Shown: one piece after another, positions 1,749 to 62,885 of the stretch | Numbering within the stretch: position 1 is the first letter of the stretch | How the letters are laid out: the number at the start of each line of letters is the position of its first letter | Origin: Candidatus Omnitrophota bacterium | GTDB taxonomy: Bacteria; Omnitrophota; Gorgyraeia; Gygaellales; Profunditerraquicolaceae | Assembly (NCBI GenBank): GCA_017992455.1 | Contig: JAGOOP010000001.1 | Location: 59,723 to 123,722 of the forward strand | DNA: 64,000 bases | Direction: 5' to 3' | Program-made: the position numbers and the translations under genes | The notes under the pieces: generated by a model | The model's input: the letters and a program-made list of their open reading frames with translations, nothing else | Database searches by the model: none | What the model was told of the DNA's origin: nothing

Positions 1749-1780
1749 ATCTATATTATTCTATACTGCTGGTTTCAACA

Positions 1781-1932
1781 GCTGTCGTGGCATAGTGTCT
1801 CGGGGACGTTCGCCGGCCCCGGCGTGGCCGGCTCACTCGGTTCCGCCCCTCACTCTGCCCGACCGATCAGCCTGCGTGGCATCCGTGCCCGTTCGGGGCT
1901 TCACAAGCCCCTCGACACTATGCCACGACAGC
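1781..1932. ncRNA. structured intergenic element E1: 19-bp perfect closing stem plus a ~114-nt GC-rich core (family with 62714-62885 and 21702-21935)
   Basis: 1781-1799 gctgtcgtggcatagtgtc is the exact reverse complement of 1914-1932. Internal hairpins at 1812-1832, 1878-1889 and 1895-1911. The core aligns with E4. Functional strand is unresolved. Confidence 0.6.
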
Positions 1933-12885: not shown

Positions 12886-12907
12886 TCTCTTTATATAAAG
12901 CGCAAAA

Positions 12908-12943
12908 GCCGCTGTAATATATGATATTACAGCGGCTTTTTTT
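12908..12943. terminator. bidirectional intrinsic terminator
   Basis: 13-bp perfect stem GCCGCTGTAATAT/ATATTACAGCGGC with a 3-nt loop. Flanked by AAAA upstream and T7 downstream. It sits between two convergent genes. Confidence 0.8.
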
Positions 12944-12950
12944 ATTAACG

Positions 12951-13364: not shown

Positions 13365-13436
13365 TGCCGAAGGAGGGAATCGAACCCCCTACGCCGGCCT
13401 TTTCAGGGCCGCGCTCTACCAATGAGCTACTTCGGC
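13365..13436 (-). tRNA. tRNA-Phe (GAA)
   Basis: Reverse complement is GCCGAAGTAGCTCATTGGTAGAGCGCGGCCCTGAAAAGGCCGGCGTAGGGGGTTCGATTCCCTCCTTCGGCA. Cloverleaf with anticodon loop CTGAAAA and a TTCGATT T-loop. CCA is not encoded. Confidence 0.9.
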
Positions 13437-18406: not shown

Positions 18407-20419
18407 TTACGCTATCAATTGTTTGATCTTATCGATATGCCTGCGCGCCTCTTCCTCGCCGCGCCCGGCAAATGCCTCTGACTTATGCAGCGCCAGCCAG
18501 TGCAGGCCTGACAGATCCGGGTGCAACACGACATCCGCCAGCTGGGCCTCTTTCTGGGCGACCTCGGACTGCATGATCTCGAAGCTCGAGAAAATAAAAT
18601 CAAGGATGTTCGTCTTGAACTGTTCCTGGATATACCGCTTGAGATTGAACCACTCCCTGCCGTGCGCGCTTGCCGTATCGCCGTTCAGATCGTCCTTGAC
18701 CGATTCGTACTGGCGCTTGATATCCTCGCGCGACGGGGTCACGTTCACGGCGATGACCCGTTTAACGCCCATTTCGACGAGCGGTTCGGTCGGCAAAGGG
18801 CTCAGGACCCCGCCGTCGAACAGCATCTGGCCTTTCATCTTGAACGGCATGAATATGCCCGGCATCGAACAGCTTGCCATGATGGCGTCGACGAGCGTGC
18901 CCCGGTCAAGCACCATGGTCTCGCGGCGTTTGACGTCGGAGGCCACGATCTTGAGCGGGATCTTGACGTCATAGAACGTCATGTTCCCGAGATACTTCTT
19001 CAGAAAACCGTAGAGCTTGTTGCCTTTGATGAACCCCTGAAGCGGAAGCGTAAAATCAAGAAGGTTCAGGATATATTGCGGCTGCCTGAATTCCCGGGTG
19101 ATGCTCAATATCTCGGCGCTCGAGCGGCCCGTTGCCCAGAGGCTTGCGATGACCGAACCGATGCTGGCCCCGGAGATCATATCGATCGGGATCTTTTCCT
19201 CTTCGAGGACTTTCAGCACGCCGATGTGGCACAGGCCGTAGGCCGCCCCGACGCCCAGGGCCAGCCCCACCAGGCAATCGCCTTCCTGGCGCGCGATCCT
19301 GCGCATCACCTTGGCGTACGGAGATAAAGGCGTATCGATGACCGCCCTGCCTGCCGCGCGCGCCTCGATATGCGGCAGGCTGGCGAACACGTCCCGGCCG
19401 AGCAGTTTCAACGTATCCTCGGAGCTGATGCGCGACTGCCGCGCCGCGTTCAGGATGATCTTGAGCTTCTGGACGGGAAAATGATATTCCTCATCGAGCG
19501 TTTTTGCGAGGATCCGGGTCGACCGCAGGTCGAGCGGCCGCGGGCTTGTCAGGATGTGGATGATATCGGCCTGGTTCAGTATATTCAACACGGCCTGCTC
19601 GCGCGTGGACGGCAGATCGATGATCACGAAATGATATTCGTTGACCAGGCGGCTGAGCATCTCGACAACGGTCCTCTGCCAGGACGGGTCATCGTGCGTA
19701 TACGTGACATATATCAGGTCTATGCCGAACTTGTCCTTGAGAATGTAGTCTTTGTACTGCGCCGTGCTGGCGATCCTGCTTGAAAGATTGAAGACCCGGT
19801 ATGATTCCCGCATGCCCAGGACACGCGGCAGACGGTGTATTTTTTCCGGAGGGCATATGTCGAGGATGATGACCCGCTTATGCGCTTCCCTGCTGATGCC
19901 GAACGCCAGATTCGACGCGTACACGGTCTTGCCCGCCTGCGGATATGAACTCAACACCGAAATGATGGTGCTCTCGAAAACAGTCTTCTGTCTGATATCC
20001 TTGTGTTTAAGGCGGCGGGAGAGCGCCCGTCCGAGCTCGATCGCAAGGCCCGGGACCTTGCGCAGAATAGCCTCAAAATCGTCGACGCTGACGGCAAGGA
20101 GGAGCGCGTCGTTGATGGCGCGCGCGGTGACCGAATGTGGTTCGCCGGTCAGGCTGGAGATGACCCCGAAATATTTCCCGCGGTGCAGATGTTCGAGCGT
20201 GGTCTGCTTACCGTAGCGGTCCTGCGTGGACACGGCGACCCTGCCGCGGATAATGCAATAAAAATAGGACGGCGCCGACCCTTCCTTATAAACGATCTGC
20301 CCTTTTCTGAATTCGAGAAACCGGGCCTTTTGCCGTACATAACGCTGCTGCTGCGCCGTAAGCCCGGAGAACAACGGGAACTCTTTCAGGATATAATCGT
20401 AATCGGTCGCGCGTTTCAT
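18407..20419 (-). CDS. cyclic-nucleotide-binding / MinD-ParA-like (degenerate P-loop) / patatin-like phospholipase three-domain protein
   Basis: 670 aa. An N-terminal CAP-type cNMP domain; a middle SIMIBI-like segment (SSYPQAGKT, FVIIDLPS); a C-terminal patatin domain (GVGAAYG, GASIGS, DGG). Confidence 0.8.
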   Translation of the reverse strand: MKRATDYDYILKEFPLFSGLTAQQQRYVRQKARFLEFRKGQIVYKEGSAPSYFYCIIRGRVAVSTQDRYGKQTTLEHLHRGKYFGVISSLTGEPHSVTARAINDALLLAVSVDDFEAILRKVPGLAIELGRALSRRLKHKDIRQKTVFESTIISVLSSYPQAGKTVYASNLAFGISREAHKRVIILDICPPEKIHRLPRVLGMRESYRVFNLSSRIASTAQYKDYILKDKFGIDLIYVTYTHDDPSWQRTVVEMLSRLVNEYHFVIIDLPSTREQAVLNILNQADIIHILTSPRPLDLRSTRILAKTLDEEYHFPVQKLKIILNAARQSRISSEDTLKLLGRDVFASLPHIEARAAGRAVIDTPLSPYAKVMRRIARQEGDCLVGLALGVGAAYGLCHIGVLKVLEEEKIPIDMISGASIGSVIASLWATGRSSAEILSITREFRQPQYILNLLDFTLPLQGFIKGNKLYGFLKKYLGNMTFYDVKIPLKIVASDVKRRETMVLDRGTLVDAIMASCSMPGIFMPFKMKGQMLFDGGVLSPLPTEPLVEMGVKRVIAVNVTPSREDIKRQYESVKDDLNGDTASAHGREWFNLKRYIQEQFKTNILDFIFSSFEIMQSEVAQKEAQLADVVLHPDLSGLHWLALHKSEAFAGRGEEEARRHIDKIKQLIA

Positions 20420-21636
20420 TCAAGCTGGTTGGTCGAACAAACCTTTGAATATTTCCGGGCGCTGTCCCGCACGGTTCGCGCTCCGGTCCGGTAATCGATG
20501 CCGATCAGGCCGAAACGGGGATCGAACCCTTTATCCCATTCAAAATTGTCCATGAACGACCAGTAGGCGTACCCGATCACCGCAATGCCGTTTTGGATCG
20601 CCGCGTGGACCCGCGACAGATGCTCGCGTATGAAATCCCATCGCACGCTGTCGTCCGGCGTGCAGATGCCGTTCTCGAGGATGAACACCGGCAGGCGGTA
20701 TCTGTTCAACATCATAAGAATATCGTATATGCCCTGCGGATATATTTCCCAGCCGAGAGAGTTCTTGGCGAGCGTATCGTCATGATGGCTGCATGCGTTG
20801 CACACCAGGTCCCGCATGGACCAGCTGTCCGCATGGACCAGGGTACGGCTGTAATAGTTGACGCCGATATAATCGAGCGTCCTGCGGCGGGCAAGGATCC
20901 CCAGGATATTATGATTGACGATCGCGTTGCGCAGCCGGACGCCGAGGCGGTCGCGGATGCTGCCGGTGCATGCCGTATAAGCGGGCATATGATGGGCAAT
21001 GCTCACTTTCGGACGCGGCAAACCCCGCTTCTCGTATATGGCATGGATCAGGCGGTAGGCGCGGACATGGCTGCGGAGAAAATTATTCCTGGCAGCAAGC
21101 GCTTTTGGCAATGAACGGACATTCGGAGGCCAGTCTCCCACAATATAGCCGTAGAACACATAGATCAGCGGCTCATTGATCGTGACCCAGTAGGTGACAC
21201 TGCCGGCCAGTTCGCTGACGATGCGGTTTACATACGCCAGGAAATGATCCGCGGCGCGGGGGCATGCCCAGCCGCCCTGTTCGGCAAACCATTGGGGGCT
21301 GGTAAAATGATGGAGGGTCACGACCGGCTCTATGGAACGCTCGCGCAGCGCAGCGATAACGTCCTTATAATGCGCGATAGCCTCCGCAGAGAACTCTCCC
21401 TGGCGCGGCTCGATGCGGCTCCATTCCACCGATAAGCGATGACAGGTATGGCCGAGGGATCCGGCAAGATCGAAATCCTCCCGGTACCGTTCGTAATGCC
21501 TGCAGGCGCCGGCGGAAGGAGCTTTGCCTCCTCCTCGCTGTTCCCAATGCCACCAATCGCTGTTTGTGTTATTGCCTTCGACCTGATGAGCGGACGTGGC
21601 AGCGCCCCACAGGAATTTATCTGGGAATCGCATCAT
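20416..21636 (-). CDS. beta-glucosidase, glycoside hydrolase family 1
   Basis: 406 aa. FLWGAATSAHQVEG, TINEP (acid/base) and ILENG (nucleophile). ATGA overlap with the downstream gene. No SD upstream. Confidence 0.9.
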   Translation of the reverse strand: MMRFPDKFLWGAATSAHQVEGNNTNSDWWHWEQRGGGKAPSAGACRHYERYREDFDLAGSLGHTCHRLSVEWSRIEPRQGEFSAEAIAHYKDVIAALRERSIEPVVTLHHFTSPQWFAEQGGWACPRAADHFLAYVNRIVSELAGSVTYWVTINEPLIYVFYGYIVGDWPPNVRSLPKALAARNNFLRSHVRAYRLIHAIYEKRGLPRPKVSIAHHMPAYTACTGSIRDRLGVRLRNAIVNHNILGILARRRTLDYIGVNYYSRTLVHADSWSMRDLVCNACSHHDDTLAKNSLGWEIYPQGIYDILMMLNRYRLPVFILENGICTPDDSVRWDFIREHLSRVHAAIQNGIAVIGYAYWSFMDNFEWDKGFDPRFGLIGIDYRTGARTVRDSARKYSKVCSTNQLE

Positions 21637-21643
21637 ATGGTGT

Positions 21644-21671
21644 ATTATACCACGACAAAAAAAAATCCCAA
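21644..21671 (-). promoter_or_regulatory. putative promoter giving a leaderless GH1 mRNA
   Basis: Minus strand: TTGGGA (21671-21666, inside the E2 terminator stem), 16 nt, TGgTATAAT (-10 at 21649-21644), 7 nt, ATG at 21636. Confidence 0.45.
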
Positions 21672-21686
21672 CATTTCTGTTGGGAT
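21656..21686 (-). terminator. intrinsic terminator of the E2 RNA
   Basis: AUCCCAAC-AGAAAU-GUUGGGAU hairpin (21686-21665) followed by about 9 U on the minus strand. Confidence 0.8.
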
Positions 21687-21936
21687 CTCTGATAGAAAAA
21701 AGCCGATAAAGGCGTACTCCACCTTCATCATACTCGGCAACCCAGCCACCATATCAACCGCGCGCGCCCCGCGGCGCCCGCACCTGCAATGCGCCGTGCG
21801 GCAGGCGGCTGACGTAGGTCTGAGGCTTTGCCCCGCACTTCAAGCATGCCAAGTCACGGGGTCCCGGAATAGTCAGTTTTCGAGTCTGCTCGGTCCGGGA
21901 CGTCCCCCGATTTCTCGAGGTTTGCCTTTATCGGCC
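21657..21936 (-). ncRNA. unclassified ~280-nt structured RNA E2 with its own promoter and terminators; the 5' half is related to the E1/E4 core
   Basis: There is no ORF. GCCGAUAAAGGC (21935-21924) pairs perfectly with 21713-21702 and is followed by U6. The interior is GC-rich with many hairpins. A promoter lies directly upstream and a terminator downstream. Confidence 0.65.
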
Positions 21937-21942
21937 ATGATA

Positions 21943-21970
21943 AGTATAGCACAGAACCGGCTTTTTTCAA
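21943..21970 (-). promoter_or_regulatory. sigma70-type promoter of the E2 RNA
   Basis: Minus strand: TTGAAA (21970-21965), 16 nt, TATACT (21948-21943). The predicted start at ~21936 coincides with the first base of the closing stem. Confidence 0.6.
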
Positions 21971-21985
21971 GGAAGCGGGAACGCG

Positions 21986-22444
21986 CTAATCCGTCAATGT
22001 TCCTGCAGGCAGCGCCTGGTTCAAATACTTGCTCAAAAGCTGCCAGGTTTTTGGCCCGACTTTGCCGTCAACGACAAGGCCGTTGGCCTTCTGGAACGCC
22101 TCGATCGCCGCTTTGGTCATCGGCCCGATCTTGCCGTCGATCGCTCCCAGATATAACCCTGCGTTTTTCAAAGCGGTCTGTATCTCGGTCGCGAGGGGCT
22201 GATACGGGCCCCCCGGCGGCAGCGCTTCCAGATCATCTTCAGCTGATTCCAGGACGCTTGCGACCGGGGTCATCGCCGCCGGCGCGGCCGCAGACTGAGC
22301 GGGCGCAGATTGGGTCGAAAGCCGGTTCAGGTCCTCCGGAGACATCGGCTGCTGCATATCCTCGAGCGGATCGGCCTTCTTCGCGCAGCCCGCAACGCAG
22401 ACAACTGCGGCCAGAACCAGTACCACCAATGCAAATCTTTTCAT
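21986..22444 (-). CDS. lipoprotein with C-terminal peptidoglycan-binding (PG_binding_1-like) domain
   Basis: Start trimmed to MKRFALVVLVLAAVVCVAGC (lipobox) with an AAGGAGA RBS. C-terminus: GAIDGKIGPMTKAAIEAFQKANGLVVDGKVGPKTW. Confidence 0.75.
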   Translation of the reverse strand: MKRFALVVLVLAAVVCVAGCAKKADPLEDMQQPMSPEDLNRLSTQSAPAQSAAAPAAMTPVASVLESAEDDLEALPPGGPYQPLATEIQTALKNAGLYLGAIDGKIGPMTKAAIEAFQKANGLVVDGKVGPKTWQLLSKYLNQALPAGTLTD

Positions 22445-31483: not shown

Positions 31484-31565
31484 GGCTAAAAAACGGGGTC
31501 AGAATTATTTATTTGCCGCGATGCGCTTAGCTAACAAATAAATAATTCTGACCCCGTTTTTAGCC
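31484..31565. terminator. very long AT-rich hairpin; probable bidirectional terminator after hppA
   Basis: The 32-nt arm at 31484-31515 pairs with 31535-31565 (one bulged A) across a 19-nt loop. The inner stem GGGGTCAG.../...CTGACCCC is flanked by an A6 and a T5 run. Confidence 0.7.
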
Positions 31566-62713: not shown

Positions 62714-62885
62714 GTTGCGGCATCCGTTCTGCCTGCGTCCTCAGGGACGCTCCTGCGGCCCCGGCGTGGCCGCAGTCGCTCGATTCCGGCCCCTCGCTCT
62801 TGCAGACCATCATTGGCAGCGGCAATCCATGCCCGCTCGGGGCCTCCAACGCCCTTCGGATCGCAGGCAGAACGGATGCCGCAAC
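62714..62885. ncRNA. structured intergenic element E4: 24-bp perfect closing stem plus a conserved core (second copy of the E1 family)
   Basis: 62714-62737 gttgcggcatccgttctgcctgcg is the exact reverse complement of 62862-62885. The core is collinear with E1, including the 17-nt identity cggccccggcgtggccg. Confidence 0.6.

Follow-up and report, generated by a model that had tools for sequence, protein, structure and literature searches.

The window analysed here is a 64,000-nt (64-kb) stretch of contig JAGOOP010000001.1 of a Candidatus Omnitrophota bacterium. The element in question, E2, is an RNA encoded on the minus strand of the window, in the gap between a PG_binding_1 gene and the gene of a GH1 beta-glucosidase, the stop codon of which overlaps the start of a cNMP-binding/patatin gene. 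An initial annotation had described E2 as an autonomous, non-coding transcription unit partly homologous to two other elements of the window, E1 and E4, and had proposed that it is a trans-acting small RNA (sRNA). We found that, as judged from its sequence, its predicted fold and its orthologs, E2 is a member of the cyclic di-GMP-I (c-di-GMP-I) riboswitch class, also called GEMM-I (RF01051), with two extra hairpins and an elongated arm. The joint best explanation of the locus, to which we give a probability of about 0.8, is an independently transcribed GEMM-I-class RNA, most likely a free-standing one that responds to c-di-GMP; we infer the ligand, the direction of the switch and its output from these same signals. 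The features of the locus, all on the minus strand, are listed here in the direction of transcription.

21986-22444, minus: PG_binding_1 gene (PF01471), upstream of E2.
21943-21970, minus: predicted E2 promoter, with a -35 TTGAAA, a 16-nt spacer and an extended -10 TGcTATACT (consensus scan); predicted +1 at 21936.
21656-21936, minus: whole E2 RNA, from +1 to the end of the U tract of terminator T2 (from signals and folding).
21697-21936, minus: form of E2 ending at terminator T1, about 240 nt.
21924-21936, minus: 5' strand of the P0 helix, GGCCGAUAAAGGC, which includes the short P1 5' strand, the J1/2 linker, the G20-equivalent and the GC of the 2-bp base of the first hairpin; invariant in 15/15 orthologs and aligned to RF01051 through the ortholog L152.
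21902-21926, minus: first GEMM hairpin (P2 here), made of GC, an AAA internal loop, the 6-bp stem CCUCGA-UCGGGG, a GAAA loop and GAC; partial match to RF03167, with covariation at 4/6 stem pairs in alignment A7.
21861-21901, minus: Ha, the first inserted hairpin, GUCCCGG...CCGGGAC; 7/7 pairs covary in A7.
21832-21860, minus: Hb, the second inserted hairpin, CCCG...CGGG, abutting Ha and the closing GC; 6/6 pairs covary in A7.
21824-21831, minus: GC closing the hairpin base, AAA linker (the A47-equivalent first) and the start of P3, GCC; invariant, RF01051 consensus GCAAAgCc.
21740-21826, minus: P3 arm, with the 5' strand GCCUCAGA and the receptor half CCUACG, and the 3' strand UAUGG-UGGCUGGG(U); invariant pairs in the proximal part, and a variable distal part (21757-21809) whose pairs covary.
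21733-21739, minus: J3/1 and the P1 3' strand, UGC-CGAG, in which the first C of CCG is the C92-equivalent; aligned to RF01051 ...gGcUgCCgaa through L152.
21704-21730, minus: T1 hairpin, UGAUGAAGGUG-GAGUA-CGCCUUUAUCG, followed by GC and U6 (21697-21702); terminator scan, upper pairs covary.
21701-21713, minus: 3' strand of P0, GCCUUUAUCGGCU, common to P0 and T1; invariant in 15/15 orthologs.
21656-21690, minus: T2 hairpin, AGAGAUCCCAACA-GAAA-UGUUGGGAUUUUU, followed by a U run (terminator scan).
21644-21671, minus: predicted GH1 promoter, with a -35 TTGGGA inside the 3' arm of T2, a 16-nt spacer and TGgTATAAT (consensus scan).
20416-21636, minus: GH1 beta-glucosidase gene (PF00232).
18407-20419, minus: cNMP-binding/patatin gene (PF00027 and PF01734).

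A permissive Rfam scan of the window showed that the 5' 48 nt of E2 match RF03167 (c-di-GMP-I-GGC) with 31.3 bits (local E value 2.6e-5; gathering score 59), a match that is confined to the first hairpin and is a local-alignment artefact omitting the whole second half of the aptamer. We then gathered 15 distinct E2 orthologs through protein neighbours and a metagenome pattern scan. The ortholog L152, which precedes GH1 on an Omnitrophota contig of 1.87 Mb, scored 37.5 bits against RF01051 (gathering score 35) and was aligned over all 87 positions, with gaps of 80 nt exactly at the insertion and of 21 nt in the distal part of P3. Two other orthologs, L099 and L107, scored under the RF01051 threshold. 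The corresponding syntenic site of another lineage, L128 (1640-1785, minus strand, of the metagenome contig Ga0105164_10034418), holds an uninterrupted c-di-GMP-I aptamer scoring 83.8 bits, which has in common with E2 the 5' GCCGAUAAAGGC and the 3' GGCUGGGUUGCCGA and CCUUUAUCGGC; it has a TATACT promoter of its own and a different strong terminator, followed by the TATAAT-N7-ATG of GH1. Because a canonical GEMM-I aptamer occupies the same site in L128, E2 is best described as an L128-type aptamer plus two insertions. A clean Rfam assignment, which the initial annotation had named as an outcome that would refute its sRNA proposal, was reached at the level of the family through L152 and L128, the window copy itself having 31.3 bits, on RF03167.

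In the published GEMM core, stems of 2 bp and 6 bp flank an internal loop of 3 nt, the linker between the two hairpins is AAA, and, where the first hairpin has a GAAA loop, the second one carries a GNRA-tetraloop receptor, of 11 nt (PMC1950547). Read against this description, every core feature was found in E2. The first hairpin, which was named P1 in the 2007 GEMM paper (PMC1950547), reads GC / AAA / CCUCGA-GAAA-UCGGGG / GAC / insert / GC, and its pairs hold in 15/15 orthologs. The sequence GC-AAA-GCC at the linker was invariant; the AAA was fixed by the search pattern in the metagenome set and was unforced in the orthologs found through proteins. The canonical 11-nt receptor CCUAAG...UAUGG is present in L013, L152, and L203, and that of the window (CCUACG...UAUGG) is one substitution away from it. 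The short P1 of E2 is formed by 5' GCCG...CGAG, and UU(G/A)CCG was invariant in the E2 orthologs. The ligand of the Vibrio cholerae Vc2 aptamer is contacted by G20, A47, and C92, and the aptamer has an inter-helix C-G pair (PMC4744006). The equivalents of these three nucleotides, mapped through the L152-RF01051 alignment, were invariant in the 15 orthologs and would make the same contacts, and E2 has a G at the G20-equivalent, like the RNAs that bind c-di-GMP. The C of GAC, the putative nucleotide of the inter-helix pair, was invariant in 31/31 sequences of A7 and is outside the fixed positions of the search pattern. The pseudoknot that the initial annotation had proposed for the 3' part of the RNA falls in distal P3, a region that is variable and, in several orthologs, missing or different, and was therefore rejected. 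Of the two GGUGG boxes noted there, the first is indeed invariant, being the 3' strand of P3, and it is the only one to be so.

The insertion adds about 70 nt to the 3' side of the internal loop of the first hairpin, between GAC and the closing GC. A pattern scan of Joint Genome Institute (JGI) metagenomes for a GEMM first hairpin with GCAAAGCC 58-88 nt further on returned more than 119 stretches, of which about three quarters were tandem canonical GEMM-I aptamers and were filtered out. These stretches (L096, L100, L106, L110, L113, L170, L173, L180, and others) hold double or triple canonical c-di-GMP-I aptamers upstream of genes for secreted or membrane proteins, an arrangement that is already known and that inflated the count of the scan. 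At least about 29 distinct sequences with a true insertion were retained among the metagenome matches listed, three of which (L125, L137, and L196) look like chance matches; we estimate the carriers of the insertion at no fewer than about 25-30 metagenomic GEMM-I RNAs. The sequences of the inserts are unrelated. When they were folded alone, the minimum free energy (MFE) structure of 27/30 inserts consisted of exactly two end-to-end hairpins filling the insert from its first to its last base.

The A7 alignment was made of the 31 sequences matched by R1, a covariance model of the 5' half of E2, about 27 of them insertion-type RNAs and four tandem or canonical ones (L128, L143, L160, and L172). 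In A7, 96.8% of the cells were paired, against 28-53% in slid registers, and compensatory changes were found at 17/21 pairs, including 13/13 of those of Ha and Hb; the fitting of A7 to the model biases these values towards the structure. In the alignment of the 15 orthologs, 96% of the cells were paired, against 34-49% in the slid controls, and 10 pairs showed compensatory changes. GAC, GC and AAA were intact at the borders of the insertion in all of the approximately 27 examples. By splitting GAC from GC, the insertion turns the first GEMM hairpin into a four-way junction in which the conserved loop nucleotides keep their places. Away from the GH1 locus, insertion-type RNAs are located in ordinary 5' untranslated regions (UTRs) of genes for N_methyl (pilin-like), DPBB_1 (RlpA-like lytic transglycosylase) and GAF-domain proteins, and these downstream genes fit the extracellular, pilus and signalling bias of GEMM. 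Eight of the 17 insertion-type RNAs that were checked, the window copy included, scored under the RF01051 threshold. No description of the insertion variant, or of riboswitches in Omnitrophota, was found in the literature searched, which is weak evidence of novelty.

The signals of transcription agreed with what had been annotated. The minus-strand promoter TTGAAA-16-TATACT is present at 21970-21943, with a TG extension of the -10 box, and the pattern TTG(A/C/T)AA, a spacer of 16-17 nt and TGnTATA(C/A/T)T was found in 14/15 orthologs. The distance from the -10 box to GCCGAUAAAGGC (the GCCG start) is 6-8 nt across the E2 orthologs, and the predicted +1 of E2 is the first base of the P0 helix. 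The first 12-13 nt of the RNA (21924-21936, GGCCGAUAAAGGC) pair perfectly with 21701-21713, as had been noticed; the U6 that follows is there, as is the second terminator, a hairpin at 21690-21661 and then U9, ending at 21656. The annotation of E2 as free of open reading frames (ORFs) held, since the only ORFs overlapping it have 32-39 codons and none is conserved. E2 orthologs are 250-285 nt long, with differences that are not multiples of three. A small ORF starting from AUGAUG in the 5' strand of T1 (35 codons, 21645-21752) was rejected, as it lacks a Shine-Dalgarno sequence and as L099, L107, L152, and related sequences do not have the AUG. The 241-nt E2 RNA folds at -116.9 kcal/mol, compared with -93.8 +/- 4.7 kcal/mol for shuffled sequence (z = -4.9). 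No second copy of E2 was found in the window by BLASTN or nhmmer. The promoter, the +1 at the closing helix and both terminators were kept in the 15 distinct orthologs, so that the autonomous, non-coding and terminator-bounded unit of the initial annotation stands, and by these signals E2 is a real and conserved non-coding transcription unit.

Near-identical contigs occur in anaerobic-digester and other metagenomes. The order of PG_binding, a gap of about 350 nt and GH1 was kept in relatives in which GH1 is from 77% down to 55% identical. The gap was more conserved than the flanking proteins and showed long invariant blocks next to variable segments with compensatory changes. Synteny and covariation in related genomes, a check that had been suggested, were both seen: the E2 unit is syntenic with GH1, and its structure covaries in the 15 orthologs. 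A GH1-based scan of genome contigs returned mostly distant GH1 genes from other phyla, and E2 was found only at L048. The other Omnitrophota GH1 loci L015, L016, L018, L019, and L022 held no aptamer.

The GH1 gene appears to have its own promoter. Its ATG (21636) is located 7 nt past the -10 box, with no Shine-Dalgarno sequence, and TGnTATAAT-N6/7-ATG precedes GH1 in 13/13 orthologs with downstream sequence. GH1 would thus most simply be expressed as a leaderless messenger RNA (mRNA) from a promoter of its own. The PG_binding gene, unlike GH1, has an AAGGAG-type site. The -35 box of GH1 (TTGGGA) coincides with the 3' arm of T2 in most orthologs and lies about 30 nt beyond T2 in L203 and L201.

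In the 3' tail of E2, the segment GCCUUUAUCGGC was invariant in 15/15 orthologs and is perfectly complementary to the invariant 5' end, giving a P0 helix of 12-13 bp. The 5' strand of T1 imitates the 5' end of the RNA imperfectly and varies among orthologs (UGAUGAAGGUG, GUAAAGGC, GAUAAGGCA, AAAAGGUGG, etc.). An invariant strand whose T1 partner drifts is expected only if that strand must also pair with the frozen 5' strand of the aptamer. The tails after T1 were U-rich in 11/13 distinct orthologs. P0 was kept in the canonical L128, and in the more distant L121 it showed a compensatory change from A-U to G-C (GCCGAUAAGG / CCUUAUCGGC). L121 (3018-3300, plus strand, of contig Ga0180432_10003083) holds an insertion-type aptamer resembling E2, which has a TATACT promoter of its own and a different terminator, and a DPBB_1 (RlpA-like) gene lies about 377 nt downstream of it. 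As L121 has P0 near a DPBB_1 gene, the P0 design also occurs away from the GH1 locus. When P0 forms, it sequesters the G20-equivalent together with the GC at the base of the first hairpin; it is therefore incompatible with the ligand-binding fold and amounts to an anti-aptamer helix. The computed energies were -116.9 kcal/mol for the state with P0 and -109.2 kcal/mol for the aptamer with T1, the energy of the ligand and of the tertiary contacts not being counted; since these values are close, ligand and tertiary contacts could tip the balance.

The second terminator is located about 15 nt beyond the U tract of T1/P0. Its 22-nt sequence was identical in all but two orthologs, with one compensatory pair in L107, and it is present as a single copy in the window. 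A related arrangement was seen in L022 (2330-2500, plus strand, of JALOQJ010000003.1, an Omnitrophota metagenome-assembled genome), which has the PG_binding gene and a GH1 gene (55% identical) and no aptamer. The 185-nt gap of L022 contains two CCCAAC...GUUGGG hairpins with U runs, the second of which overlaps TTGGGT-17-TATAAT, 7 nt before the GH1 ATG. The idea that T2 is an effector hairpin specific to E2 was weakened by these T2-like hairpins of an aptamer-less locus and was set aside.

These features suggest the following mechanism. The binding of c-di-GMP would stabilise the aptamer fold and, with it, T1, while the thermodynamically stronger P0 would close the RNA when no ligand is bound. 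Transcription would stop either at the U tract behind P0/T1 or, some 15 nt later, at T2, and the GH1-patatin operon would run from its own promoter with a leaderless start. The RNA could then act as a sensor, as a sponge, or as a switch altering what the 3' tail exposes. A free-standing c-di-GMP-responsive RNA is slightly preferred, on the signals seen at the locus, over a cis role by read-through or by promoter interference on GH1, because GH1 has a leaderless start, its own promoter and no Shine-Dalgarno sequence. More tentatively, and as a conjecture with somewhat more chances of failing than of holding, we propose that the insertion defines a c-di-GMP-I subclass with a four-way junction beside the pocket and that, in this Omnitrophota clade, such an aptamer was turned into a free-standing ligand-gated RNA. 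Here, c-di-GMP might toggle the RNA between P0 and the aptamer and so determine how the RNA is shaped, how stable it is or how much c-di-GMP it can hold; E2 might otherwise tune the leaderless hydrolase/lipase operon through terminator-promoter coupling, never being part of its mRNA.

Several observations weigh against a free-standing c-di-GMP-responsive RNA. Rfam at gathering level returned only one tRNA on the window, the window copy of E2 being under every gathering score because the Ha/Hb insertion of about 70 nt and the long P3 interrupt the core. Conserved aptamers that do not respond to the ligand exist (PMC11218506). Whether P0 or T1 forms, a helix immediately precedes the U tract, and the effect of the ligand on termination at that tract may be nil. 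No good U tract follows P0 in L013, L179, and L128, and T1 is not a universal terminator, given the missing U tract in L128 and L013. No alternative pairing of T2 with the switch region and no sign of T2 regulation were found, and T2 is best seen as a terminator-and-promoter module of GH1 since L022 keeps a T2-like hairpin and the leaderless promoter without an aptamer. In all orthologs GH1 comes directly after E2 and is read in the same direction, which leaves room for a cis role. Finally, a motif scan, the only search made for them, found no GGDEF, EAL or HD-GYP genes in the 64-kb window, a length too small to be informative.

The strongest competitor is a classic cis-acting transcriptional riboswitch, in which c-di-GMP would decide between a stop at T1/T2 and read-through into GH1-patatin, or its variant in which a polymerase crossing the -35 box inside T2 would interfere with the GH1 promoter. 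Taken together, these two forms are a serious possibility that we nevertheless consider more doubtful than probable. The invariable position of E2 immediately 5' of GH1 and co-oriented with it is what such a switch would show, and a terminator strand that doubles as the partner of an aptamer strand is typical of the logic of expression platforms. Elsewhere, N_methyl pilin-like and DPBB_1 genes do carry insertion-type relatives in 5' UTRs of the ordinary kind, Bc1 is a c-di-GMP-I switch with two terminators (PMC11218506), and the overlap of the GH1 -35 box with T2 in most orthologs would suit interference. This overlap is not universal, however, the -35 box being about 30 nt past T2 in L203 and L201. 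The conserved extended -10 box of GH1 lies 6-7 nt before the ATG, so that a read-through transcript would carry an internal start without a Shine-Dalgarno sequence. The invariance of T2, with no alternative pairing to the switch region found, and the position of both P0 and T1 against the U tract are also at odds with a decision between stop and read-through.

An exapted or relic GEMM-I RNA that has lost c-di-GMP binding and now plays a structural or protein-binding role, or only insulates transcription, is an improbable explanation. The P0 state, which destroys the binding pocket, is the computed MFE fold; large insertions interrupt the core, and non-responsive conserved aptamers are documented (PMC11218506). 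Loss of binding is nevertheless hard to reconcile with pocket and tertiary-contact nucleotides that are all invariant while the flanking GH1 is only 55-60% identical, or with an insertion that spares GAC, GC and AAA at its borders in all of the approximately 27 examples.

The proposal of the initial annotation, that of a trans-acting sRNA homologous to E1 and E4 and pairing with the mRNAs of the operons that contain them, is very improbable. E1 (approximately 1780-1932, plus strand) and E4 (approximately 62722-62880, plus strand), which both lie between minus-strand ORFs, are homologous to each other (nhmmer E value 1e-5) and are two copies of a structured intergenic element of about 150 nt, with a conserved core of about 110 nt that includes a hairpin with the loop CCGGCGU. 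A stem of 14-16 bp encloses the core, and the sequence of this stem differs between the copies with ten compensatory pairs. Neither strand of E1/E4 has a match in Rfam, and no further copy was found in the window or in 94 other loci. E2 has its own promoter and terminators, as such an sRNA would, and short words such as UCGGGG(G)ACG are shared. The homology that had been claimed for 21821-21910 was at chance level: its Smith-Waterman local alignments with E1/E4 were equalled or exceeded by 129-342 of 500 dinucleotide shuffles, compared with 0/500 for E1 against E4. A profile of the 15 E2 sequences (nhmmer --max) had no match to E1/E4 at E <= 1000, and the reverse search with an E1/E4 profile gave only sub-zero scores (E >= 4), for two orthologs, and did not match the E2 of the window. 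The covariance model of the E2 5' half, with filters off, matched E2 alone (124 bits) and had no E1/E4 match at E <= 10. The seemingly collinear blocks are made up of words of the GEMM core and of the GC-rich Ha and Hb stems. Because the homology fails, a trans-acting sRNA with intercistronic target sites in E1/E4 loses its basis. The 9-mer complementarity cited in its favour is common in the window, with 37 matches at no more than one mismatch for about 27 expected, and in E2 these nucleotides are base-paired, as the 3' strand of the first GEMM hairpin. In an RNAduplex scan, which is crude and ignores intramolecular structure, the E1/E4 windows ranked from 76th to 963rd of 1266, and their duplex energies with E2 are unexceptional. 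A 6S-like RNA binding RNA polymerase, which the initial annotation had left standing and which the long closing helix and the size of about 240-280 nt recall, is effectively refuted by the RF01051 assignment of the orthologs, with no match to the 6S covariance models of Rfam at E <= 10 and, in place of a rod with a central bubble, a multi-helix GEMM-I fold backed by covariation.

Three other structured elements were seen in the window. A near-perfect AT-rich inverted repeat of about 27 bp at 31490-31560 (AAAACGGGGUCAGAAUUAUUUAUUUG...), which gave a spurious match to a microRNA family, is probably a bidirectional terminator. About 420 nt separate a tRNA gene from a palindromic terminator-like hairpin at 12894-12946 (AAAGCCGCUGUAAUAU...AUAUUACAGCGGCUUU), which reads identically on either strand. 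The tRNA gene (13365-13436, minus strand; 67 bits; anticodon loop CUGAAAA) probably encodes tRNA-Phe.

E2 belongs to a known riboswitch class and is not a new kind of RNA. What appears to be new in its structure is the two-hairpin insertion together with the long P3, the former common to at least roughly 25-30 metagenomic relatives and partly invisible to Rfam, and what appears to be new in its architecture is the self-contained unit, in which an anti-aptamer helix closes the RNA, two terminators stand in tandem and the promoter of a leaderless gene is adjacent. As about half of the insertion-type RNAs checked miss the Rfam threshold, c-di-GMP-responsive RNAs are probably under-counted in candidate phyla such as Omnitrophota. 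The insertion is placed beside the inter-helix-pair nucleotide and leaves the pocket residues intact, and with the canonical L128 at the same site it makes a natural pair, suited to asking what peripheral helices add to folding, affinity, and kinetics. The layout of E2 also makes it a candidate for a riboswitch-class RNA working outside a 5' UTR, of which few examples exist.

Comparison with the known systems places E2 as follows. RF03167 (c-di-GMP-I-GGC) is the best-scoring Rfam model on the window copy, yet E2 has the standard AAA linker and its orthologs align to RF01051. With GEMM-I RNAs of RF01051 such as Vc2, E2 has in common the 2-bp base, the AAA/GAC internal loop, the 6-bp stem, the GAAA loop and the AAA linker, as well as a second hairpin with a receptor of the 11-nt type, the equivalents of G20, A47, and C92, and the 3' consensus GGGUU(A/G)CCGA. 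It differs from canonical GEMM-I in its two-hairpin insertion of about 70 nt, in a P3 that is about 50 nt longer and in the score of the window copy, under the gathering score. GEMM was located in the 5' UTR of the regulated gene in 297/309 cases (PMC1950547), whereas E2 is not a 5' UTR with a ribosome-binding site and has its own promoter, two terminators and, apart from these, the promoter of the leaderless gene; location in a 5' UTR, which E2 lacks, is a typical property of the class and no part of its structural definition. The Bc1 RNA of Bacillus thuringiensis, like E2, has a c-di-GMP-I aptamer followed by two closely spaced intrinsic terminators, the upstream one coupled to the aptamer and the downstream one apparently constitutive (PMC11218506). 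Unlike E2, Bc1 is a genuine 5' UTR that also affects translation, and it has neither an insertion in the aptamer nor a 13-bp helix between the 5' end and a terminator strand (PMC11218506). The merRNA of Bdellovibrio bacteriovorus, a lineage-restricted RNA of 445 nt that was proposed to be a c-di-GMP sponge, is known from its massive expression (PMC3627812), whereas E2 is known here from sequence alone, and E2, unlike merRNA, is tightly syntenic with a downstream gene. The presumed likeness between the two lies in a c-di-GMP riboswitch carried by a stand-alone non-coding RNA with no controlled ORF (PMC3627812), and the sequence signals around E2 would fit an aptamer in such a discrete transcript.

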